Source of the DNA: Thermoanaerobaculia bacterium
GTDB lineage: Bacteria; Acidobacteriota; Thermoanaerobaculia; UBA5066
Direction of reading: 5' to 3'
Length of the DNA: 13,502 nt
Assembly (NCBI GenBank): GCA_038245905.1
Contig: JBBRRY010000054.1
Location: forward strand, 1 to 13,502
Shown: in pieces, positions 2,889-13,502 of the stretch
Numbering within the stretch: the first letter of the stretch is position 1
Layout of the letters: every line of letters starts with the position of its first letter
The notes under the pieces: model-generated
The model's database searches: none
What the model was told of the DNA's origin: nothing
Seen by the model: only the letters and a program-made list of their open reading frames with translations
Position numbers and translations under genes: made by a program

Positions 2889-5351
2889 TTACCGCCGGTC
2901 CTGCGCCGGCCGCCGGTCACACGCGGCGACCGTGCCCTTCACGTAGTCGGCGATCGACTGCTGGGATTTGCTGAGGACGCCTTCCTTCTCGAGCGTCTGG
3001 AATGCTTCGAGGCTTCGTCGGTGCCACGAGCAGACGTCGGGCGGCGGCGGGGAATCGGTCGCACCCGTCCACGGTGGAGCCTCGGCGAGACCTCTCACGT
3101 CGCCGGTGTCTTTGAGGGCGGTCGCGCGCCGGACCCGGTCGTCGACGGAACCCGGGCTTTTCGCGAGCAGACGGTCGAGGATCGCGATCGCCTGCGGCCC
3201 GTGGGCGCGCCACCCCGCGTCGCCGGCCTTCACTTCGGCATAGGCGAGCCTGACGAGGATGGACGAGAGGGCTCGCTGGAGCGTGACGTCCTTCGGATCC
3301 GCAGACGCGAGTGTCTCGCGGATGGCGGCGGCTCTGCGGTAGCTCTCGAGGCCAGCCTGCTTGTCACCGATCTCGAGGAGGTTGTACCCGAGATCACTCA
3401 ACGTGAACGAGAGGTCGCGACGAGCCGTCGCGTTAGAATGCTCCGCGGCGATCGTGGCTTCCTCGATCGCGAGAGCCTTCCGGTAGCTCCGGATGGATTC
3501 GTCATACCTCTTGAGGGCCGCGAGCCGCCCGCCGATGTACTTTTGGCTCAGCGCGAGGCCGCGGCGCGCCCGTGGGTTCGCCGGATCCTCCGCGGCCAGC
3601 CTCTCGAAGATCGCGGATTCCTTGCGGTAGGACTCGAGCGCTCCTTCGGCATTGCCTGCGTTCGATTGGCTCGCTGCGACCGCGTGGTATGCCCGCGCGA
3701 GAGGCTCCTGATCGGCGAGGCGCACGGCGTCGGCGACGGCCTCCCGCGCCGCCGCTTCGGCCGCTTTCGTGTCCCCCGTGTCGGCCAGAATCTTGCTCAT
3801 CCGGATGCGCGTGTCCACGAGGGCGGCGCGGTCGCGCGGGTCCGCGCGCACACCTTTCGCCAGGTCCTCTCGAATCGCGAGCGCCTTCAGGTAACTGGCT
3901 TTCGCACCGACCGTGTCACCGAGATTCCCGAAGTTGCCGCCACCCTGAACGTCTCCCACTTTCTCGTAGGCGGCGGCCAGCTCGCGCCGGATCGAAGCAT
4001 CGCCGTGCGCGTCGCGCTCGAGGCTCTCGAGATACTCCAGCGCGCGCTTGACGACGATCTGTCGCGCCGGAGTCGAGCCCGCGAGGTCCGCGATCGCGTC
4101 ATGGAACTCGAAGAGGTACGTGTTCGCGAGCTTCCGGACGTCGTTGAACCGCCTCTCCGCGCGGGCCCTTTCCCGCGCGATCTGGACGAATCCCGCCACC
4201 GCGACGAGGACAACGAGTCCCGTCGCCGCGACGCTGAACCGGTGGCGCCGCAGGAATTTCCCCGCGCGGTAGCGAAACGTGTCGGGCCGCGCGAGCACGG
4301 GGCGCCCGTCGAGGAAACGGCGGAGATCATCGGCGAGCTGCTCGACGGTCGCGTAGCGCCGTTCGGGCTCCTTCGCCAGCGCCTTCCCGAGAACCGTGTC
4401 GAGATCGGCGCCGAGAAGCGGCGCCGATGATGCCGGTACCTGCTCGACGACGGCCCGTTCGATCTCGGCGGGGGAGCCTGTCGTCGTCCGGTATGGCAGG
4501 GCGCCCGTCAGGAGCCGGTAGAGGACGACTCCGAGGGAGTAGACGTCGCTCGCGATCGTGATCCTCTCGCCGCGGACTTGCTCGGGACTCGCGTATTCGG
4601 GCGTCAGGAGGCGGTGCACGGTCGCCGTGCGCTCTTCAGATGGGACGTCGAGCAGCTTCGCGAGCCCAAAGTCGAGGAGCTTCGGCACGCCGTCCTTCGT
4701 CACGAGGATGTTGCCGGGCTTCAGGTCGCGGTGAACGACGAGATTCTGGTGGGCGAACTGCACGGCGGCGGCAATGTCGAGGAACAACCGGATGCGCGCG
4801 TCGCGCGGGAGGCTCCGGCGATCCGCGAACTCGAGGAGGTGCTCCCCCTCGACGACCTCCATCGCGAACCACGGAAGGCCGTCCTCGGTCGTCCCCCCGT
4901 CGTAGAGGCGCGCGATGTTCGGGTGCTCGAGAGTGGAGAGGATGTTTCGCTCCGTGTGGAAGCGTTCGAGCAGGAGCTCCGAAACGAGCTCCAGCCGGAT
5001 CACCTTGAGCGCGGCGCGGCGCTCGAAGCCCTCGCCGCGGTGGACGCCGAGGTAGACGGAGCCCATTCCGCCGCGGCCGAGGTCGCCGAGGATGTCGTAC
5101 GGGCCGATTCGGGCGGGCCTGGGCTGGCGCGCGGCGCCCAAGGGTTCGTCCTGGAGGCTCGCCACTTCCGCGAGGACTCCGGCCTCGAGACGCCCGGGCG
5201 CCGCTGCGGCCCGGAGGAGCGACTCGACGTCGCGCCGGAGGGCTTCGTCGTCGCCGCAGGCCGACGCGAGGAAGGCCGCGCGCTCGTCTTCGGAGCGCTC
5301 GAGCGCTCCGAAGTACACCTCCCGCGCCTCGAGGAACCTTCTGTCCGTCAC
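2889..5351 (-). CDS. Membrane-anchored Hanks-type Ser/Thr protein kinase with C-terminal TPR-like helical repeats (ECF-associated type), about 820 aa
   Basis: Gly-loop LGRGGMGSVY, AALK, HRDLKPGN, DFG, TPEYASPE, SDVYSLG; TM FSVAATGLVVLVAVAGFV; repeated helical units (ESYRKE/RSYRKA/ESYRRA); N-terminal ERAAFLASACGDDEALRRDVESLL extension. Start moved from the track's 5492 to the GTG at 5351, which overlaps the sigma TGA as GTGA. Confidence 0.93.
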   Translation of the reverse strand: MTDRRFLEAREVYFGALERSEDERAAFLASACGDDEALRRDVESLLRAAAAPGRLEAGVLAEVASLQDEPLGAARQPRPARIGPYDILGDLGRGGMGSVYLGVHRGEGFERRAALKVIRLELVSELLLERFHTERNILSTLEHPNIARLYDGGTTEDGLPWFAMEVVEGEHLLEFADRRSLPRDARIRLFLDIAAAVQFAHQNLVVHRDLKPGNILVTKDGVPKLLDFGLAKLLDVPSEERTATVHRLLTPEYASPEQVRGERITIASDVYSLGVVLYRLLTGALPYRTTTGSPAEIERAVVEQVPASSAPLLGADLDTVLGKALAKEPERRYATVEQLADDLRRFLDGRPVLARPDTFRYRAGKFLRRHRFSVAATGLVVLVAVAGFVQIARERARAERRFNDVRKLANTYLFEFHDAIADLAGSTPARQIVVKRALEYLESLERDAHGDASIRRELAAAYEKVGDVQGGGNFGNLGDTVGAKASYLKALAIREDLAKGVRADPRDRAALVDTRIRMSKILADTGDTKAAEAAAREAVADAVRLADQEPLARAYHAVAASQSNAGNAEGALESYRKESAIFERLAAEDPANPRARRGLALSQKYIGGRLAALKRYDESIRSYRKALAIEEATIAAEHSNATARRDLSFTLSDLGYNLLEIGDKQAGLESYRRAAAIRETLASADPKDVTLQRALSSILVRLAYAEVKAGDAGWRAHGPQAIAILDRLLAKSPGSVDDRVRRATALKDTGDVRGLAEAPPWTGATDSPPPPDVCSWHRRSLEAFQTLEKEGVLSKSQQSIADYVKGTVAACDRRPAQDRR

Positions 5352-5968
5352 GGCGTCCCTGCGATCTCCCGCTGCAGCCAGGCCTCGGCGTGCCTCCATT
5401 CGCGGCTCACGGTCGCATGGGATACCTGCAGGACTTCGGCCGACTCCTCGATCGTGAGGCCGGCAAACAGGCGCAGCTCCACGAGCCGGCACTGCCTCTC
5501 GTCGAGGGCCGAGAGCTTCGACAGCGCGCGATCGAGGTCGAGGAGGTCGAGGCTCTTCGGCGGCGTCGCTGCGGCCGCGGCCGCGGCATTGTCGAGGCCG
5601 AGGAGGATCTGCCCGGAGCCGCGCTTCCCGGTGTTGCGAGCGCGCGCGTGGTCGACGAGGACCTGGCGCATCGCCCGCGCGGCGACGCCGAAAAAGTGAG
5701 CGCGGTCCTTCCAGTCGACGGATGCGCCCCCGACGAGTTTCAAATAGGCCTCGTGGACGAGGGCCGTGGGCTGAAGCGTGTGGCCGCCTCGCTCGGAGCG
5801 AAGGACGGCGCCGGCCCGACGGCGCAATTCATCGTAGACGAGGGGAAGGAGCCTTGAGAGCGCCTCGCGGTCTCCGGCGCCCCACTCGCGGAGGAGCTTC
5901 GTGACCTCTCCGGCCGGGGCGGCGAGCGGGGGCTCTTCCATGAGGGGATCCGAGACCGATTCTCGCAT
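5348..5968 (-). CDS. ECF RNA polymerase sigma factor, ECF43/TIGR02999-like (kinase-associated)
   Basis: EVTKLLREW..GDREALSRLLPLVYDELRRRA, HTLQPTALVHEAYLKL, WKDRAHFFGVAARAMRQVLVDHAR, and region 4 LVELRLFAGLTIEESAEVLQVSHATVSREWRHAEAWL. Alternative ATG start at 5941. Confidence 0.92.
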   Translation of the reverse strand: MRESVSDPLMEEPPLAAPAGEVTKLLREWGAGDREALSRLLPLVYDELRRRAGAVLRSERGGHTLQPTALVHEAYLKLVGGASVDWKDRAHFFGVAARAMRQVLVDHARARNTGKRGSGQILLGLDNAAAAAAATPPKSLDLLDLDRALSKLSALDERQCRLVELRLFAGLTIEESAEVLQVSHATVSREWRHAEAWLQREIAGTP

Positions 5969-6006: not shown

Positions 6007-8721
6007 ATGCGAAACCGCATCAAGCTCGCCGCCGCCGTGACGCTCCTCACGCTAGCGGCCCCCGGGTTCGCCGCGACCTGGACGATCCCTGGCACCGTCA
6101 ACGCCGGCGGACTGAACAACACCCGGTTCGTGTCGGACCTCGCGCTGACGAACCCCGGGAGCGTCCCGACGCAGGTGCTGCTCTCGTTCATTCCGGTGAA
6201 CGGGACGAGCCCGGCCTTCGTCATGCTGGACCCGGCGGAAACGGTCGTGTATCGCAACGTCCTCGACACCCTCTGGGGGGCGCAGGGAGCCGGGGCGACG
6301 CGGGTCACGAGCGACCTGCCGCTTCTCATCCGGGCGCGGACGTACAACACCGCATCCTCGGGCACGTACGGCGTCGCCCTTCCCGTCTTCGCGGACGAGC
6401 GGCTGCTCTCGCTCGGCGACACGGCCGACAGCCTGTGGATCAGCCAGTCGGCCGACGGAAGTTCGGGCTATCGCACGAACGTCGCCGTCGTCTTCCCGGA
6501 CGACGGCGGAGGTGCCGCGACGGTGACGGTTTACGGCGCCGACGGCAGCAAGGCCGGTTCGCAGGAGTTCTCGCTTGACGCTCCCGGCTTCCAGCAGTTC
6601 GGCGTCGGCGGGTTTGCGGGAGCGGTGTCGATCGCGCGCGCCGAGGTGAAGGTCACCCGCGGTCGCGCCGCCGGCTACTCCGTCGTCGTCGACAACGTGA
6701 CGGGTGATTCGTCACTCTTCGCGTTCGAAGACCTGCCCGCCGGCGCCCAGGACGTCCTCGTCAACGGTGTCGCCCGGGCGAACGGACTAAACAGCACCTT
6801 TTTCCGGACGGACGGCCGCTTCTACAACCTCGGTACGTCCGACGCGACGGTGTCGGTGGCTTTCCACGACAAAAAGAACAGCAATCCGTCTCCCTTGACC
6901 CGGACGTTCACCGTTCCCGCGGGACAGATCCGCGATGTCGTGGATGTGCTGAACGCGCTGCTCGGCCTTCCCGTGGGCTCGGCCGGAGCGTTGCGCTTCA
7001 CGTCCGATGCGCCGGTTGCGATCCTGTGCCGCACGAGCAACGTCGATCCGCTCGGCGTCAAGCCGGGCACGTACGGCGCCCAGCAGAAGCCCACGCCGCT
7101 TCTCTCGTTTTTGATGTCGGCCGACGCGGGTGCGGTGGTCACCGGCATCCGGCAGAACGCGACGTTCCGGACGAACGTGGGCTTTGCCGCGGGAGCGGAC
7201 GGCGCCGACTACGCCCTGACACTCCAGAGCACGTCCGGCGACACCGTCGCGACGTCGGCGGGCTCTCTCGGAGCCTTCGGCTGGACGCAGCCGAACGTCC
7301 AGGACCTCTTCCCGGGTACGACGATCCCGGAGGACGCGACGCTTCGCGTGCGGGTCACCTCCGGAAGCGTCGACGTGTTCGATTCCTCGATCGATAACGC
7401 CTCCGGAGACCCGGTCGTCACGCCGATCATGGCGCTGCCGGAGGACATCCCGTCCGCGGCCACGATCGGTCCGCTGGGAGGATCGATTCGCTCGGAGGAC
7501 GGGAGATTCACGTTGAAGGTGCCAGCCGGCGCGCTTGCCGCGCCCGTGGCGTTCGGTCTCGTGGCGGCTCCGAACACGGCGCCGAACGGGCACGGCTCCG
7601 GCTACCTGCTGTCGCCGGGCGCCGCGGCGTTCTCGCGCTCCGCGAGGGTCGTCCTCCGTTACGATAAAGCCACCCTCTCCGCCAACGCGCCGGTCGGCCC
7701 GAACCTGGTTTTCCAGAGCGGCGGCTCGTGGTACGCGGTGACGAGATCGTCGGTCGACGCGTCGGCCCGAACGGTCAGCGCCGCCATTCCGGCGGCGTCG
7801 CCCGCGGTTTCGGTGCGCGGCGGGCGTCGCGCCTCCGCGGACGCGAGCACGGCCTGGGCGTCCCTTTACGCGGTCGACATCGTTCCGCCGACGAGGGTCG
7901 TCCTGTCGGGCGGTACCCTCGATCTTCGCGTCTCGGTCGTCGACGTAAAGGTCGGAGACCCGAGTCCCTACGTCCTCGTCCGGAACAAGGAGCTCTCGGG
8001 CTACAACTTCGACTGGTACGTCAACACCGTCTTGCGGGGCGGTGGGCTGGCCGGCTCGATCGAGGGGAGCGGCGCGTCGGTGACCTACAGGGCGCCCGCG
8101 AAGGACGCGAACCAGGCCTGCCTTCCGTTCGAAAACCCGGTTCTCATTCAGGTCTTCTTCGCCGATCGTGCCGCTCCCGGACCGAAGAGCGACTTCCTGA
8201 AGGCCCGCGTCGGCGTCCTCGCGAGGAACTGGTCGTTCGACTACTCCCTGGAGAGGAATGTGACCTGCGACTCGCCGGTGCCGAACGGCCCGGCGCGATT
8301 CGGATACGGATCGAAGGTGAACGCGACGTTCTCGATCGGCGAGAGTCTGACGGTGGGTAGTCTTCACAAGTCGAGTTCGGAGCTGTTGAGGGTCGAAGCC
8401 TCGGCGTGTTACGGAGACTGCTCGATCACGATGGGACCGATCCGGACGATCGACATCGTCGGCCTCGAGGGAAGCTCGTTTGTGGACTCGGGGGATGCCT
8501 ACGCACCGTTGCATCTGAAGTTCTCCCTCCAGGATCCCGGCGATCCGTCCTTCACGATCGTGTGCCCCGATACACCGGTGGTGATCAAACCCGAACCGCC
8601 CGTGACCCTGAATCCTCGGGAAATCAGGGTGTCGGTGGAGGGCGGCCAGACTCCGCTGAGTTCTTACAGCTTCAACAAGGAGACCGCCCTCGCGCTGCCG
8701 TTGACGCCGAAGTGCGAATAG
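6007..8721 (+). CDS. Large secreted protein: signal peptide, two tandem homologous beta-rich domains, ZU5-like segment and Cys-containing C-terminal region; function unknown
   Basis: GGAGGT RBS at 5998-6003; Sec-type signal MRNRIKLAAAVTLLTLAAPGFA; internal duplication; ATIGPLGGSIRSEDGRFTLKVPAGAL resembles ZU5-like starts; 904-aa ORF with high-GC codon usage. Confidence 0.85.
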   Translation: MRNRIKLAAAVTLLTLAAPGFAATWTIPGTVNAGGLNNTRFVSDLALTNPGSVPTQVLLSFIPVNGTSPAFVMLDPAETVVYRNVLDTLWGAQGAGATRVTSDLPLLIRARTYNTASSGTYGVALPVFADERLLSLGDTADSLWISQSADGSSGYRTNVAVVFPDDGGGAATVTVYGADGSKAGSQEFSLDAPGFQQFGVGGFAGAVSIARAEVKVTRGRAAGYSVVVDNVTGDSSLFAFEDLPAGAQDVLVNGVARANGLNSTFFRTDGRFYNLGTSDATVSVAFHDKKNSNPSPLTRTFTVPAGQIRDVVDVLNALLGLPVGSAGALRFTSDAPVAILCRTSNVDPLGVKPGTYGAQQKPTPLLSFLMSADAGAVVTGIRQNATFRTNVGFAAGADGADYALTLQSTSGDTVATSAGSLGAFGWTQPNVQDLFPGTTIPEDATLRVRVTSGSVDVFDSSIDNASGDPVVTPIMALPEDIPSAATIGPLGGSIRSEDGRFTLKVPAGALAAPVAFGLVAAPNTAPNGHGSGYLLSPGAAAFSRSARVVLRYDKATLSANAPVGPNLVFQSGGSWYAVTRSSVDASARTVSAAIPAASPAVSVRGGRRASADASTAWASLYAVDIVPPTRVVLSGGTLDLRVSVVDVKVGDPSPYVLVRNKELSGYNFDWYVNTVLRGGGLAGSIEGSGASVTYRAPAKDANQACLPFENPVLIQVFFADRAAPGPKSDFLKARVGVLARNWSFDYSLERNVTCDSPVPNGPARFGYGSKVNATFSIGESLTVGSLHKSSSELLRVEASACYGDCSITMGPIRTIDIVGLEGSSFVDSGDAYAPLHLKFSLQDPGDPSFTIVCPDTPVVIKPEPPVTLNPREIRVSVEGGQTPLSSYSFNKETALALPLTPKCE
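6073..7430 (+). repeat. Protein-level tandem duplication of a ~220-aa domain (about 6073-6725 and 6751-7430)
   Basis: Collinear motif pairs: GLNNTRFVSD/GLNSTFFRTD, AGATRVTSDLP/AGALRFTSDAP, GTYG/GTYG, YRTNV/FRTNV, VDNVTGD/IDNASGD. Confidence 0.85.
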
Positions 8722-8739: not shown

Positions 8740-9603
8740 GTGATCGCGCTCTTGTGCTTCGCTGCCGTGTTTCTCGTCCTCTGGAGCGTCGCGCTCACGG
8801 TCGTCCCGCATCTCGTCCGGCGCGTCCGGTCCGTCGCCGGACGCCTTGCCCGATGGCTCTGCGGCCGCTCTCGGCTCGGACCGCTCTTCGGGCGGCTCGA
8901 GACGTGGCGTTCGTATCTCCCGCTCGCCATCGCTCTCGCGATCGGAATGCTCGTCATCGTGTGGACCGCCGATGCATTCATCGATCTCGCGGCCGCGCTC
9001 AAGGCGCAGGACCCGGCCGTCCAGCGAATCGACGCGGCGGTCTACGAATGGTTCGGATCCCGGAGGACACCCTTCACGAGCGCGCTCTTCGTGACGATCA
9101 CGACGGCGGGTGGGGTTGCCGGGATGACGGCGCTCGTCGTAGCAGTGCTCGCCGTCCTGATCGCACGCCGCCGGTTTCGCCGGGCAGCCTACCTCGCGAT
9201 CACGTCCGCGGGCGGCTTTCTTCTCAATCAGCTCCTGAAGAACCACTACGTCAGGCCACGACCCGACCTGAAGGCGGCCGTTCTCGATGCGATGGGCTAT
9301 TCGTTTCCCAGCGGGCACGCCATGAGCAGCACGATCATCCTCGGCGCCCTCGCCTACCTCGCGACCCGCTCGATACCGGACTGGAAAAATAAATCCGCCG
9401 CCCTCGCCGCTCTCGCGACGCTTGCGCTCGCCATCGGGATCTCCCGTGTCTACCTCGGAGTCCACTGGGCCTCGGATGTCGGCGCGGGCTTCGCGGCCGG
9501 ATTGCTCTGGGTGACCGCGACGACCACGGGTTACGAGCTCTTCCGGCAGTACCGCCTCGGCCAGGCGGATATGGCGCAGCGCCGGACGAATGCCTCCGCG
9601 TGA
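8740..9603 (+). CDS. PAP2-family integral membrane lipid phosphatase (undecaprenyl-PP/phosphatidylglycerophosphatase-like)
   Basis: C1 KNHYVRPRP, C2 SFPSGHA, C3 SRVYLGVHWASDV, and multiple TM helices. Start uncertain because no clear RBS is visible. Confidence 0.9.
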   Translation: MIALLCFAAVFLVLWSVALTVVPHLVRRVRSVAGRLARWLCGRSRLGPLFGRLETWRSYLPLAIALAIGMLVIVWTADAFIDLAAALKAQDPAVQRIDAAVYEWFGSRRTPFTSALFVTITTAGGVAGMTALVVAVLAVLIARRRFRRAAYLAITSAGGFLLNQLLKNHYVRPRPDLKAAVLDAMGYSFPSGHAMSSTIILGALAYLATRSIPDWKNKSAALAALATLALAIGISRVYLGVHWASDVGAGFAAGLLWVTATTTGYELFRQYRLGQADMAQRRTNASA

Positions 9604-9629
9604 GCGACGGGCAGCCGCCGCGCGTGACA

Positions 9630-9635
9630 TAGAAT
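9630..9635 (+). promoter_or_regulatory. Candidate sigma70 -10 element for the nuo operon
   Basis: TAGAAT in the 72-bp intergenic gap before nuoB; no convincing -35. RBS-like AGGGGT at 9665-9670. Confidence 0.45.
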
Positions 9636-9641
9636 CCCGGC

Positions 9642-9659
9642 TCGTGACGCTTTTCACAA
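9642..9659. promoter_or_regulatory. Rex-like operator (alternatively a CRP/FNR-family site)
   Basis: TCGTGAC-GCTT-TTCACAA matches the Rex consensus TTGTGAA-N4-TTCACAA at 12/14 positions, with a perfect right half. It lies just downstream of the candidate -10 and upstream of NADH dehydrogenase genes. Confidence 0.65.
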
Positions 9660-9675
9660 GCGTCAGGGGTGCCCG

Positions 9676-10401
9676 ATGAAGACTCCGCCTCCCTCTCTGC
9701 CCGTCCGGAACGCCATGCCCGGGAGAATCGAGCCTCCGCTCGGCCCCGGAATGCCCTCGACGTCGGGCGCAGACTTCCTGACCACGAAGCTCGACGTCGC
9801 CGTCCAGTGGGCGCAGTCGAATTCGCTCTGGCCGATGCCCTTCGGCACGGCCTGCTGCGCGATCGAGTTCATGTCGGTCGTCTCCTCGCACTACGACCTG
9901 GCACGTTTCGGTGCCGAGGTCGTGCGGTTCTCGCCCCGCCAGGCGGACCTTCTGATCGTCGCCGGCACGGTTGTCGACAAGCTCGCGCCGGTTCTCAAGA
10001 AGGTCTACGACCAGATGTCCGAGCCGAAGTGGGTCATCTCGATGGGTGTTTGCGCCTCGACGGGCGGCTTCTACCGCGCGTACCACGTCGTGCAGGGGAT
10101 CGACGAGATCGTCCCCGTCGACGTTTACGTAGCGGGCTGCCCGCCGACGCCCGAGAACCTCATCCACGGAATCATGGAGCTCCAGAAGATGATCCAGTCC
10201 GGCGAACTGGCCCGCCACCGCGCATCTAAGACGTTCGTCCCGATCCGCGTCGGCACGGACCCTGATCTCTCGATTCCCGCTTACTCCGACGGCGTCATGG
10301 CGCATACCGCGGGAAAGAAGGAGCTGCCGCAGATCGGCGACACCGCCGAGTCCGAACTCAGCGCGAAGGCAAGGGGTCAGGCGGGAGAGGGGAACCGATG
10401 A
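9676..10401 (+). CDS. nuoB: NADH-quinone oxidoreductase subunit B
   Basis: [15 protein letters not shown] (tandem Cys N2 ligands), [42 protein letters not shown]. Confidence 0.96.
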
Positions 10402-12131
10402 GCGCGACGCTGAGCCGTCCCTCCGTCTCGTTCGCGCCCCTGCTCGAGCAGAAGCTCAAGGGCCGTGTCACCGTCGAAGAGCGCCCGGGCGCCGACATCG
10501 CGACGCTCGTCACTGATGCCGCGACTTTGAAAGAAGCGGCGCTTTTCCTGCGCGACGATCCGGCCGCGGCGTACGACCTCTTCCTCGACCTCGCGTCCGT
10601 CGACCGGTCGAAGCTGCCGGGCAACACCGCTCCCGGGGAAAACGGGCGCTTCCAGGCGAACTACATCCTTTACTCGACGAAGCGCAACGAGCATCTGAGG
10701 CTTCGCGTCAACCTGCCCGCGAAGGACCCGGCCGTCCCGTCGCTCACCGGCGTCTGGCCGGCGGCGAACTGGTTCGAGCGCGAGGCATGGGACCTCATGG
10801 GGATCCGCTTCGACGGCCACCCGAACCTTCAGCGGCTGCTCACGCACAACGGCTTCTTCGGTCACGCGCTGCGCAAGGACTACGACAAGGGCCAGCGCTG
10901 GCTGTGCACCGAGGAAGACCTGCTCAAGACCGAGCTCGCCGCGAAGACGGACGACCCCGCGAACATGTTCGAGACGATGACGCTGAACTTCGGCCCGTCC
11001 CACCCCACGACGCACGGCACGCTGCGCGTCGTGATGCGCATGGACGGGGAGAAGATCGTCGCGGCCGAGTCCGAGTGCGGCTACCTCCATCGCTGCTTCG
11101 AGAAGATGTCCGAAAGCCACACGTGGGTGCAGGTCATCCCCTACACCGACCGCCTGAACTACTGCTCGCCCATGATCAACGGCAACGGATACGCCCTCGC
11201 CGTCGAAAAGATGCTCGGCATCGACGTGCCGCCGCGCGCGAAGGCCGCGCGCACCGTCTTGAACGAGTTCAGCCGCATCATGGATCACCTCGTCTGCATC
11301 GGGGCGAACCTCGTCGACCTCGGGGCGCTGACGAATTTCTGGTACGCGTTCCAGCCCCGCGAGGAGATCTACGGCCTCCTCGAAGCCTGCTGCGGAGCGC
11401 GCCTCACGTCCTCGTACGCGCGCATCGGCGGCCTCGCGAAGGACGTCCCGGACAACTTCGTGGAGTGGTCCCGTTCGCTTCTTCCCACGATCCGCGACCG
11501 CGTCGCCGACATCGACGGCCTCATCACGAAGAACAAGATCGCCTGGAACCGCCTGCGCGGGACCGGCGTCGTCACGAAGGAGCAGGCGATCGCGTGGGGC
11601 TTCACCGGCCCGTGCCTCCGCGCCTCCGGCGTCCCCTACGACGTCCGCAAGGACCAGCCCTACGAGATGTACGGCGACGTCGACTTCGACGTCCCCATCG
11701 CGACCGAGGGCGACAACTTCGCGCGCTACATCGTGCGCATCGAGGAGATCCGCCAGTCGATCCGGATCATCGAGCAGATCCTCGCGCGGTTCCCGAAGGG
11801 GCCGATCAACTCCGACGACTACCGCGTCATCCTGCCCCCGAAGGAGATGGTCTACAACGAGATGGAAGGGCTCATTTACCACTTCAAGCTGGTCTTCGAA
11901 GGCGTGAAGGTGCCGGCCGGGGAGATCTACTCGTACACCGAAGGCGCGAACGGCGAGCTCGGCTACTCGCTCGTGTCGGACGGCAGCGGCTTCCCCTACC
12001 GCGTCAAGGTGCGGCCCCCGTGCTTCCCGCTTTTCGCCGCGTTCGAGAACATCATCAAGGGCGGCATGGTCTCCGACGCCGTCGCCACGCTCGGCCTCTT
12101 GAACATCATCGCCGGCGAGCTGGACCGGTAG
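10398..12131 (+). CDS. nuoCD: NADH-quinone oxidoreductase fused subunit C/D
   Basis: NuoC motif [25 protein letters not shown]...HALRKDY, followed by NuoD motifs [36 protein letters not shown] and terminal GELDR. ATGA overlap with nuoB. Confidence 0.95.
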
Positions 12132-12142
12132 GCAGGAACAAA

Positions 12143-12823
12143 ATGGCAGCACGCGTCGTCACGCTCACGAGACCCGAGCCCACGCTTCTCGAGCGCCTGT
12201 ACTTTCCCGAGATCTTCAAGGGCCTGGCGCGGACGTTCGGCCATCTCGTGAAGAACCTCCTGAACATGAAGGGCCTTCCGACCATTCAGTTTCCCGAGAT
12301 GCGCCGGAAGTACTCGGAACGATACCGGGGGCGCCACATCCTCAAGACCCGCGAAGACGGCTCGCTCAGGTGCGTCGCGTGCTACATGTGCGAGACCAAC
12401 TGCCCGGCCGACTGCATCAAGATTCTGGCGGGGGAGCACCCCGTCCTCGCCTACGAGAAATATCCGACCGTCTTCGAGATCGACCTGCTCCGCTGCGTGA
12501 TGTGCGGTTACTGCGTCGATGCGTGCCCGAAGGACGCGATCTGGATGACGAAGGACTACGAGATGGCGTTCTTCGACCGGAAGAGCGCGATCCTCGGCAT
12601 CCCCGAGCTCACCGAGAAGCCCTCCGACACGGACGCCTCGGGCCCGGGTTACGGTTACCGGCCCTACGAGGGCGAGAGCCCGATGAAGAAAGCGGGACAG
12701 TTCGAGCCCTCGGGCATCCCGCTGCTTCCGGCGCTCAAGGAGCGCGGTCTCGCGATCAACCGCATGCCGCCGCCCCCGCCGCCGAAGCCCGCCGTGCCGC
12801 CTCCGGCGGCGAAGGCGAGATGA
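12143..12823 (+). CDS. nuoI: NADH-quinone oxidoreductase subunit I (2x[4Fe-4S]) with Pro-rich tail, 226 aa
   Basis: Real start is ATG 12143 after AGGA, inside the track's 10787..12823 ORF. TIQFPE..RYRGRH, CVACYMCETNCP, FEIDLLRCVMCGYCVDACPKDAI. Confidence 0.94.
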   Translation: MAARVVTLTRPEPTLLERLYFPEIFKGLARTFGHLVKNLLNMKGLPTIQFPEMRRKYSERYRGRHILKTREDGSLRCVACYMCETNCPADCIKILAGEHPVLAYEKYPTVFEIDLLRCVMCGYCVDACPKDAIWMTKDYEMAFFDRKSAILGIPELTEKPSDTDASGPGYGYRPYEGESPMKKAGQFEPSGIPLLPALKERGLAINRMPPPPPPKPAVPPPAAKAR

Positions 12824-12827
12824 GAAA

Positions 12828-12907
12828 GAATGTTTCTATCTGTAGAAACCTCGAGCTTTCTACCTGCAGAAACTTCGGCTCATTTGCTTCTGCAGATAGA
12901 AACATTC
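12828..12907. repeat. AT-rich element with a 20-bp inverted repeat and three copies of an 18-bp quasi-palindrome
   Basis: GAATGTTTCTATCTGTAGAA (12828-12847) pairs with TTCTGCAGATAGAAACATTC (12888-12907) at 19/20. Units: GTTTCTATCTGTAGAAAC (12832-12849), CTTTCTACCTGCAGAAAC (12856-12873), and inverted GCTTCTGCAGATAGAAAC (12886-12903). Confidence 0.9.
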
Positions 12908-12913
12908 GATGAC

Positions 12914-12931
12914 GTCTAATACTAGTTAGCG
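12914..12931 (+). other. attI-like (or attG-like) recombination simple site; predicted crossover G/TT at 12925/12926
   Basis: GTCTAAT-ACTA-GTTAGCG, i.e. CTAA-N6-TTAG dyad symmetry. It resembles the L box/spacer/R box layout of attI1 (CCCTAAA-ACAAA-GTTRRRY) but with a spacer 1 nt shorter. Confidence 0.55.
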
Positions 12932-12937
12932 GGCTCA

Positions 12938-13357
12938 ATGGTCACGCCTGCCTCTCTTCGTTTCCTCCGCTACATCTGGGCGGCACCGGCCACCTTAGTC
13001 GGGCTCGTCATCGCGGCTATCTCCTGCCTGTTGGGCGCCACGGCCCGAGTTCGTGAGGGCGTAATCGAGGTGGCCGGAGGTCATCTGGCTACGTTCGCCC
13101 GTCGTGCGCCGCGGTCTATTCAGTTCCTGGCTATTACCTTCGGCCACGTCGTCCTCGGCCTGAGCCATTCGGTGCTCGCGCAGGAACGGGCGCACGAACA
13201 CATTCACGTGCGCCAGTACGAGAGGTGGGGGTTTTTCTTCTTCCCGCTCTACCTCGCTTCAAGCGCGGCGCAGCTCCTCAAGGGCCGTCATCCGTACTGG
13301 CACAACCGGTTCGAGCGCCAGGCGTTCAGCCATGCCACGTCTGAGGTCGCCCGCTAA
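12938..13357 (+). CDS. Small membrane-associated putative zinc metallopeptidase (HExxH), cassette-borne hypothetical protein
   Basis: Hydrophobic N-terminus WAAPATLVGLVIAAISCLLG; AITFGHVV; HEHIH followed by VRQYERWG; downstream NRFERQA supplies a possible third Glu ligand (gluzincin-like). Confidence 0.75.
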   Translation: MVTPASLRFLRYIWAAPATLVGLVIAAISCLLGATARVREGVIEVAGGHLATFARRAPRSIQFLAITFGHVVLGLSHSVLAQERAHEHIHVRQYERWGFFFFPLYLASSAAQLLKGRHPYWHNRFERQAFSHATSEVAR

Positions 13358-13375
13358 CCCCGCGTTGCAGCGGAC
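13352..13375 (+). other. attC left arm (R'' box, spacer, L'' box), apparently interrupted or truncated
   Basis: CGCTAAC-CCCGC-GTTGCAGC-GGAC has the canonical attC left-arm layout. No complementary L'/R' arm is found in the remaining 127 bp. Confidence 0.72.
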
Positions 13376-13502
13376 TTCCATGAGAAGGCCGGTCGTAGTC
13401 AAGAGAGGGCTGAGATCTTCGGTGGAAATTCCCGGGCTCGAGTTGGTCGCCGTGCTTCCATTCGCACTCGTGTGGGCCGCGTCGTGTCGGCCTGGTGCAT
13501 GA
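13376..13502 (-). mobile_element. Possible right end / non-coding region of an IS110/IS1111-family element inserted in attC
   Basis: The attC stops just after L''. A minus-strand TTGACT (13402-13397) points outward about 21 nt from the junction, and the terminal 7-mer CTTCCAT (13375-13381) recurs at 13455-13461. No transposase is visible in the window. Confidence 0.4.

Follow-up and report, generated by a model that had tools for sequence, protein, structure and literature searches.

A probable stranded integron gene cassette with half an attC site behind nuo genes in an uncultured Thermoanaerobaculia lineage

Introduction

How does a gene with the ends of an integron cassette come to lie directly behind genes of the respiratory chain, with no integrase gene beside it? 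The question is raised by contig JBBRRY010000054.1 (assembly GCA_038245905.1), a stretch of 13,502 nucleotides (nt) from a Thermoanaerobaculia bacterium of the Acidobacteriota. This stretch, hereafter the window, seems to be a whole metagenomic contig, and it ends 126 nt past a junction at position 13376. An earlier note, made from the letters of this DNA, had proposed that an open reading frame (ORF) close to the end of the window is a gene cassette docked behind a respiratory operon. We conclude that the ORF at 12938–13357 is a true integron gene cassette of the Thermoanaerobaculia (Acidobacteriota) pool. It is joined at G|TT (12925/12926) to non-integron DNA, 102 bp after a nuoB–nuoC/D–nuoI cluster, with no intI in the 12.9 kb upstream. 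As to how it arrived there, the account that we consider probable is that of a stranded cassette: an integron integrase (IntI) acting in trans docked the circular cassette behind the nuo genes, and its attC was later split by an insertion that targets attC sites.

The ORF has both ends of an integron cassette

The cassette begins on the + strand at G|TTAGCGGGC (12925–12934), with the crossover between 12925 and 12926. Its first ten nucleotides, GTTAGCGGGC, are 100% complementary to GCCCGCTAAC at 13349–13358, with 414 nt between the two (pair I12 of the repeat search), so that the start is complementary to the cassette's own R'' box at 10 of 10 positions, as at the 5' boundary of a gene cassette. 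The ORF fits closely between these ends, beginning 13 nt past the crossover G at 12925 and reaching its TAA stop (13355–13357) within the inverse core (..CTAAC), inside R''. A bare repeat of this length is weak evidence when taken alone, as the same 800 bp contain a second perfect inverted repeat of 10 nt (pair I13). The end footprint was defined more strictly, as an arm starting with GTT upstream of the start codon together with an arm ending in AAC at the stop, of at least 10 nt. Three of the 81 family members carry such a footprint (the window and the related loci L001 and L008), compared with 0 of 563 control windows from the same loci, in which the longest reached 9 nt. The end footprint at the cassette is not a product of chance.

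The relatives come from a scan of one genome per species across 185,579 species genomes; at least 590 genomes held a relative, and 80 loci were kept. The closest, at 77% amino acid identity, is on L001, a contig of a Thermoanaerobaculia metagenome-assembled genome (MAG). Its homologue begins at L001 6748 with the same GTTAGCGGGC, a 10-mer that serves there as the R' box of the attC in front of it; the other end, GCCCGCTAAC at 7173–7182, is likewise that of the window cassette. The homologue is flanked by repeats of the form GCCTAAC...GTTAGGC, one of 61 nt before it and one of 80 nt after it, and both are attC sites. A covariance model built from 24 L001 repeats (R1) locates 27 attC sites in the 17.2-kb locus, all on one strand and at intervals of about 480 to 1,800 bp. 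The proposed pairing of R'' with R' and of L'' with L' holds in 92.4% of cells, against 19.6–46.7% when the partners are slid by one to three columns, and one pair covaries, 13 sequences having C-G and 7 having U-A, with the switch falling between a 60-nt and an 80-nt class of site. From the sites, their pairing and this covariation, it follows that L001 is a large attC array in which the nearest relative of the window's gene is one cassette. The two classes, seen across L001 1–17178, differ by a 20-nt loop insert and the compensatory change from C-G to U-A in the L stem. The array extends off the start of its contig and beyond the end of the stretch that was fetched.

The 10-nt ends are common to the cassettes of the window and of L001, even though their leaders, which run from the crossover to the conserved coding part, have diverged; the sequence upstream of the shared 10-mer is unrelated between the two. 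The nearest named homologues of the window's NuoC/D protein are from Thermoanaerobaculia (91% and 76% identity), and judged by this protein the host belongs to the same class as L001. Because NuoC/D places the host there, the cassette is a member of its own lineage's cassette pool. Neither a tyrosine recombinase nor an integron integrase was matched in the window by Pfam on 15 ORFs or by NCBIfam on 45 ORFs of both strands, and no intI lies in the 12.9 kb upstream of the cassette.

The 3' end holds half an attC site

A complete attC site reads R''-L''...L'-R', with the consensus RYYYAAC...GTTRRRY, and folds into a hairpin. At the 3' end of the cassette the left arm alone is present (13349–13376, + strand), consisting of R'' (..CGCTAAC, 13352–13358), a spacer and L'' (TTGCAGCGG, 13365–13373), followed by ACT. 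The left-arm pattern YAACNNCNNRTTGCAGCGG matches the window once, as TAACCCCGCGTTGCAGCGG at 13355–13373, at an expectation of 0 from 200 shuffles; it matches ten times in the L001 array and not at all in the other 79 loci. By blastn, the left arm is 95.7% identical over 23 nt to the L001 attC at 6695–6717, and the likeness to L001 attC sites ends at 13376. Much of what the earlier note had read from the letters is upheld by these results: the 10-bp complementary ends with the stop codon in the inverse core (repeat search and ORF coordinates), the 5' boundary exactly at G|TT (footprint counts and L001 cassette ends), the canonical attC left arm, and the lack of an upstream intI, with nuoI ending about 100 bp (102 bp by our count) before the crossover. 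The attC covariance-model match that it had named as a test does not appear in the window with R1 or with a second model, R2, the attC being incomplete.

The model results are among the observations that tell against a cassette. R1 finds no significant attC anywhere in the window (best 10.7 bits, E 0.44), and R2, built from 47 sites in seven genomes (L001, L002, L008, L028, L056, L073 and L075), gives no window match at E≤1. With filters off, 13352–13424 scores 6.7 bits with R1 (E 7.4), less than unrelated places in the window, and 5.5 bits with R2 (E 1.2), which does not exceed such places. Against these 5.5–6.7 bits stand the 68–90 bits of the L001 sites from which the model was built. Both models derive from L001 and a few relatives and are distinct from the model of IntegronFinder; the E-values that they give are rough. 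Local alignment of 13377–13502 with the right arms of L001 does not beat shuffled sequence, and 13377–13502 folds less well than its shuffles (z +1.5 and +1.9). As both models, the local alignment and the fold give no right arm, the window holds half an attC, R''-L'' only. By attC-model evidence alone, the ORF would not be called a cassette. [quoted passage not shown] Most family loci, 77 of 80, are without a cassette footprint, and consequently the gene is not generally cassette-borne.

A decayed right arm seemed visible by eye (GCTGAG at 13409, GTTGGTC at 13441) and was rejected, because in local alignment 355 and 398 of 500 shuffles reach the same score, and neither model gives it support. 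The missing arm, which would resemble ..CCGCTGA..GATATCGTTAG, may lie beyond the contig end, if it exists.

The sequence beyond the left arm recurs behind other attC sites

What interrupts or replaces the rest of the attC is a sequence at 13377–13502, which runs off the contig and which we regard as the start of a recurrent element. The translation of 13380–13502 was searched against 1.84 billion representative proteins and gave seven matches, of which three were used; P0241, P0243 and P0246, which are unrelated tandem-repeat proteins, and P0247 were left out. The three, P0242 (84% identity), P0244 (84%) and P0245 (76%), each carry the element's translation behind a different attC left arm. 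All of them read ..(L)QRTS-MRRPVVVKRG.., in which QRTS is the translation of CAGCGGACTTCC, that is, of the L'' end of the left arm and three bases beyond the junction, and in all of them, as in the window, the element begins directly after ..GCAGCGGACT. The residues before QRTS differ among the four records (..SPANPAL.., ..STSSL.., ..GLRPM.. and ..LPNNAL..), and ..LPNNAL.. reads back to the common left arm of L001. As QRTS-MRRPVVVKRG is shared behind residues that vary, four different attC sites continue, from the same nucleotide on, into one and the same sequence.

Insertion sequences (IS) of the IS1111-attC group offer a precedent. One study (PMC3001079) places these elements close to the attC 5' end, in antisense orientation relative to the array, and ISPst6, ISKpn4 and ISPa21 are assigned to the group in two papers (PMC11187229, PMC3001079). 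The sequence from 13377 likewise occupies a single fixed position close to the 5' end in several different attC sites, in the window itself and in P0242, P0244 and P0245. It has a long non-coding stretch at the end which, in an antisense insertion, would face the cassette; the frame downstream of 13376 has the look of GC-rich DNA that does not code, and a frameshift sets P0245 apart from it. The sequence at 13377–13502 is therefore most likely an attC-targeting insertion that behaves like the IS1111-attC group, the fixed point being observed and the insertion deduced from it. P0242 and P0244, two unrelated short proteins, end at the same residue inside the element. This shared end residue and the contig end 126 nt into the element look like assembly breaks in a multi-copy repeat (126 = k−1 for k = 127).

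Several results speak against an insertion of this kind. Just three other contexts were found, two of them being the short proteins that end inside the element, and a larger set restricted to longer proteins returned P0245 alone. The 126 nt of the element within the window show no transposase and no second end, blastn of 12824–13502 gave no plasmid match, and Rfam at E≤10 returned only three noise hits for 12700–13502. A guide-like target match of the seekRNA type within the 126 nt comes to one shared 6-mer, against 2.7 expected, and no 7-mer; a seekRNA could lie further inside the element. Compared with the described IS1111-attC elements, what is missing from these 126 nt is a DEDD transposase, a subterminal repeat, a second end, and a seekRNA-like or plasmid match. 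The end of a group IIC-attC intron was also considered for 13377 and set aside, as Rfam shows no group II intron domain in 12700–13502.

An unlikely alternative is that the attC was truncated by deletion, through slippage or recombination, from its loop onward, and that the cassette was thereby fused to the next cassette or to a native gene, being fixed or 'domesticated'. The family itself offers a parallel, since in L028 a member of the same gene family runs into half an attC and then into a methyltransferase-like fragment. Folded attC sites are readily deleted by replication slippage according to a preprint (10.1101/2022.09.11.507474), and an ATG at 13380 in the window opens a frame with a lipobox-like ..VWAASC... 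A deletion does not, however, explain why three other attC left arms, with different R'' and spacer translations, pass into the same downstream sequence at the same nucleotide, because independent deletions would not give such recurrence. The non-coding look of the downstream frame, and the frameshift of P0245 relative to it, also stand against a fused gene.

The fused arrangement in L028 (9889–10921) consists of the family member, a left attC half, the fragment and a normal attC; the fused cassette spans 9973–10921 and the next full attC lies at 10838–10921. In translation the fragment reads like the C-terminal part of a methyltransferase. The window and L028 thus share the gene family and the half attC that follows it. 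They differ in that the half attC of L028 enters a gene fragment and a normal attC, whereas that of the window enters a recurrent, non-coding-looking element.

Returning to the stranded cassette, the probable course of events would be as follows. An IntI encoded by an integron at another place in the genome would have acted in trans and recombined the folded attC of the circular cassette with a site behind nuoI, double-stranded and with G|TT as its crossover, this docking site being either a secondary site of the attG type or an orphan attI-like site. An attC-targeting element would later have split the attC, leaving only R''-spacer-L'' (13349–13376). If the insertion is real, excision of the cassette would be blocked for as long as the element sits in the attC. 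Expression of the ORF would rely either on read-through of nuo transcription or on a start within the AT-rich spacer.

The spacer between nuoI and the crossover

Four nucleotides past the stop of the nuoI-like gene begins an AT-rich hairpin (12828–12907) with 20-nt arms that are 95% complementary and a 40-nt loop (pair I1). As DNA, 12824–12940 folds at −22.2 kcal/mol on the + strand and −22.8 kcal/mol on the − strand (z −4.8 and −5.5; 0 of 200 shuffles as stable), and the GC fraction of the AT-rich region is 0.47–0.49, against about 0.65 around it. Within it a 17-mer palindrome, TTTCTAnCTGnAGAAAC, occurs three times, at 12833–12849 (+), 12857–12873 (+) and 12886–12902 (−); the pattern gives four matches at three sites, compared with 0.07 expected, and has no copy in the 80 related loci. 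The fold of 12824–12940 also predicts a stem across the crossover, from a small inverted repeat (CG.CTAA / TTAGCG) at 12913–12931. The hairpin was tried as an attC and rejected, as it resembles the attC sites of L001 no more than shuffled sequence does (262 and 371 of 500 shuffles reach its score), R2 gives it 3.3 bits at 12865–12894, and its polarity is reversed (GTT left, AAC right). It may belong natively to the nuo cluster, in which case docking would be of the attG type, or be a protein-binding region, or an orphan attI-like site.

The last of these possibilities leads to a second alternative, to which we give as little credence as to the deletion: 12826–12931 would be an orphan attI-type site, made of three repeated protein-binding motifs and a simple site at G|TT, and the cassette would be the first of an integrase-less CALIN that either lost its intI or never had one here. 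The cassette does stand where the one nearest to attI would, and given its orientation any platform would be on the side of nuoI. The three copies of the 17-mer beside the crossover recall the direct repeats and the L and R boxes of attI1, as these are presented in a preprint (10.1101/2022.09.11.507474), and the small inverted repeat across the crossover fits such a site as well. Set against this, no intI or remnant of one was found by Pfam and NCBIfam in the window, the nuoI-like gene stops 4 nt before the hairpin, the 17-mer is absent from the 80 loci, and the polarity of the hairpin is the reverse of that of att sites. An operator, a structure of the nuo cluster that resembles a terminator, or a small mobile repeat would be equally good readings of the hairpin.

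The element and the hairpin can also be joined in a single proposal. The sequence from 13377 would be the end of an undescribed Acidobacteriota family of attC-targeting elements that separates cassettes from their recombination sites and so fixes them, and the hairpin with its triple palindrome would be an integrase-less docking site that takes up cassettes from the large arrays of the lineage and couples them to the expression of the respiratory cluster. As a whole we hold this proposal to be doubtful.

It is very improbable that the arrangement is an assembly artefact in which the nuo locus was falsely joined to a cassette array through repeated att sequence. The setting invites the suspicion, with what appears to be a whole metagenomic contig, repeat-rich attC arrays and a contig end 126 nt past the junction. 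At 12925, however, only about 10 nt are shared with other cassettes, which is too short to mislead an assembler at normal k, and the junction at 13376 recurs in three other records. That the ORF is an ordinary chromosomal gene with a flanking inverted repeat arising by chance is scarcely credible, for although another perfect 10-nt inverted repeat lies nearby and most family members are without cassette ends, its ends and those of the L001 cassette are identical despite a diverged 5' leader, the left arm is matched at 0 expected, and none of the 563 controls reaches 10 nt.

For expression of the ORF, which lies on the nuo strand 114 bp downstream of the nuoI-like gene with the strong hairpin between them, a simple scan for promoter and terminator consensus sequences found 0 sites in 12600–13502. 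Read-through from nuo, termination, or a start in the AT-rich spacer are all possible.

Relation to described integron systems

Most components of this locus have counterparts. SALIN, CALIN, attG insertion, the attC types of Acidobacteria, attC-targeting insertion sequences and fused cassettes have all been described already, and the recurrent element at 13377 is the one possibly new item. A preprint by Loot et al. (10.1101/2022.09.11.507474) reports that cassettes insert at GWT sites outside integrons in Escherichia coli and that they can be expressed if a resident promoter is close by, and mentions loss of attC as a possible form of cassette domestication. Like such insertions and like SALIN and CALIN, the cassette of the window is joined at G|TT to DNA that is not part of an integron; no integrase lies nearby, and the resident genes are upstream of it on its own strand. 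It departs from SALIN and CALIN in that these are defined by a detectable attC, of which the window has none, and the host here is an uncultured member of Thermoanaerobaculia and not a RefSeq genome. Acidobacteria are listed among 11 taxa with attC models of their own by Ghaly et al. 2021 (PMC8352920). With the sedentary chromosomal array of L001, the window shares its attC type, cassette ends, gene family and bacterial class. The L001 cassette, however, is one of 27, whereas that of the window stands beside housekeeping-type genes with its attC cut short.

If the stranded cassette is accepted, the locus would provide a natural example, from an uncultured soil-type lineage, of a cassette that left its array and landed beside core metabolic genes, an escape route recently shown in the laboratory for model bacteria. 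It would also show how a stranded cassette can become fixed, through disruption of its attC. Knowledge of integrons is not changed by this case; what it adds is an example from the Acidobacteriota and a pointer towards what may be a new attC-targeting element.

The gene family and its product

The cassette ORF (12938–13357, + strand) encodes a protein of 139 amino acids, P0001, with an N-terminal membrane helix and an invariant HExxH motif. Homologues number 940 at E≤0.001 among 1026 candidates. An alignment of 30 sequences has 32 invariant columns, among them H70, H77, H86, E87, H90, Q93, Y94, W97 and G98, and because H86, E87 and H90 are invariant in all 30 aligned members, HExxH is a feature of the family, kept across it as would be expected of a zincin. 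With the 30-member alignment, AlphaFold2 gave a model of mean predicted local distance difference test score (pLDDT) 92.3, in which two N-terminal helices and two beta hairpins accompany a long helix that bears HExxH. No Pfam or NCBIfam family matched P0001, and Pfam on all 30 aligned members found no shared family. A profile search of the PDB with P0001 returned nothing relevant, the only match being the ClpC N-domain (E 0.025), taken as noise, and Foldseek with the model against the PDB returned nothing at E<1. The top Foldseek rows are HExxH enzymes (BlaR1 and M61 and M1 peptidases) at a probability of at most 0.09, BlaR1 being the best (E 1.1). The ESM Atlas gave only unnamed clusters, and neither a curated peptidase family nor a solved zincin fold was matched by P0001 in these searches. 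Going by the motif, P0001 is probably a small membrane-anchored HExxH protein, predicted to be a zinc-dependent hydrolase.

Among the 80 related loci, none has nuoB, nuoC/D, nuoI or a PAP2 gene within 10 kb of the homologue. Stable synteny with nuoI in relatives, which the earlier note had named as a finding that would overturn a cassette, is accordingly not seen in these loci. No neighbour is conserved, and the largest neighbour cluster covers 13 of the 80 loci. Relatives occur as cassettes in attC arrays in L001, L008 and L028. In L008, a Gemmatimonadaceae MAG, attC sites lie on both sides and the end footprint is 13 nt long, and in L028, a betaproteobacterial MAG, the homologue is in an array with 22 attC hits. 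L073 and L075 have attC arrays upstream of the homologue. Three Methylibium loci (L002 8650–8746, L003 7000–7096 and L060 8496–8592) have no array but one attC-like hit each, of 22–37 bits, which shares the strand of the homologue and lies about 1.3 kb upstream.

A quick IQ-TREE run of the family is weakly resolved. It places the window with L001 (Shimodaira–Hasegawa-like approximate likelihood-ratio test, SH-aLRT, 98) and L008 as sister to L028 (SH-aLRT 89), and it scatters the members from Acidobacteriota and Gemmatimonadota, a pattern that fits horizontal movement within the limits of such a weakly resolved tree. The cassettes at L008 937–1490 and L028 9889–10400 are closely related and have the same attC type under MAG labels of different phyla, which reflects either transfer between phyla or a binning error.

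Resident genes of the window

The earlier note spoke of a respiratory operon. Genes of the nuo type do lie upstream of the cassette, as it said, but only nuoB, fused nuoC/D and a nuoI-like gene are present, preceded by a PAP2 phosphatase gene (8740–12823 in all), and neither nuoA, nuoE–H nor nuoJ–N was found in the window. The nuoB gene (9676–10401, + strand) matches Pfam Oxidored_q6 (E 1.9e-27) and the NCBIfam NuoB subfamily (232.7 bits, cut-off 116), and the fused nuoC/D gene (10398–12131, + strand) matches Pfam Complex1_30kDa and Complex1_49kDa; the proteins P0122 and P0123 are closest to its product, at 97% and 96% identity. The nuoI-like gene (12149–12823, + strand, start approximate, stop at 12821–12823) encodes a protein with Fer4 domains for two [4Fe-4S] clusters and a proline-rich tail; against TIGR01971 NuoI it scores 112.2 bits (E 1.1e-32), just below the cut-off of 113.05. 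Its 3' end (12763–12822) contains a GC-rich imperfect palindrome and a direct repeat (GCCGCC..CCGCCGAAG twice), and these repeats (pairs D2, I2 and I4) encode the proline/alanine tail.

The remainder of the window is occupied by a GAF/HAMP histidine kinase gene (260–2872), on the strand opposite to the two genes that follow, a gene for a Ser/Thr kinase with TPR repeats (2889–5492, − strand) and an ECF-type sigma factor gene (5348–5968, − strand; TIGR02999, 217.7 bits). A 904-amino-acid ORF at 6007–8721 matched no family in Pfam or NCBIfam. The ECF sigma factor gene overlaps the annotated start of the Ser/Thr kinase gene on the same strand.

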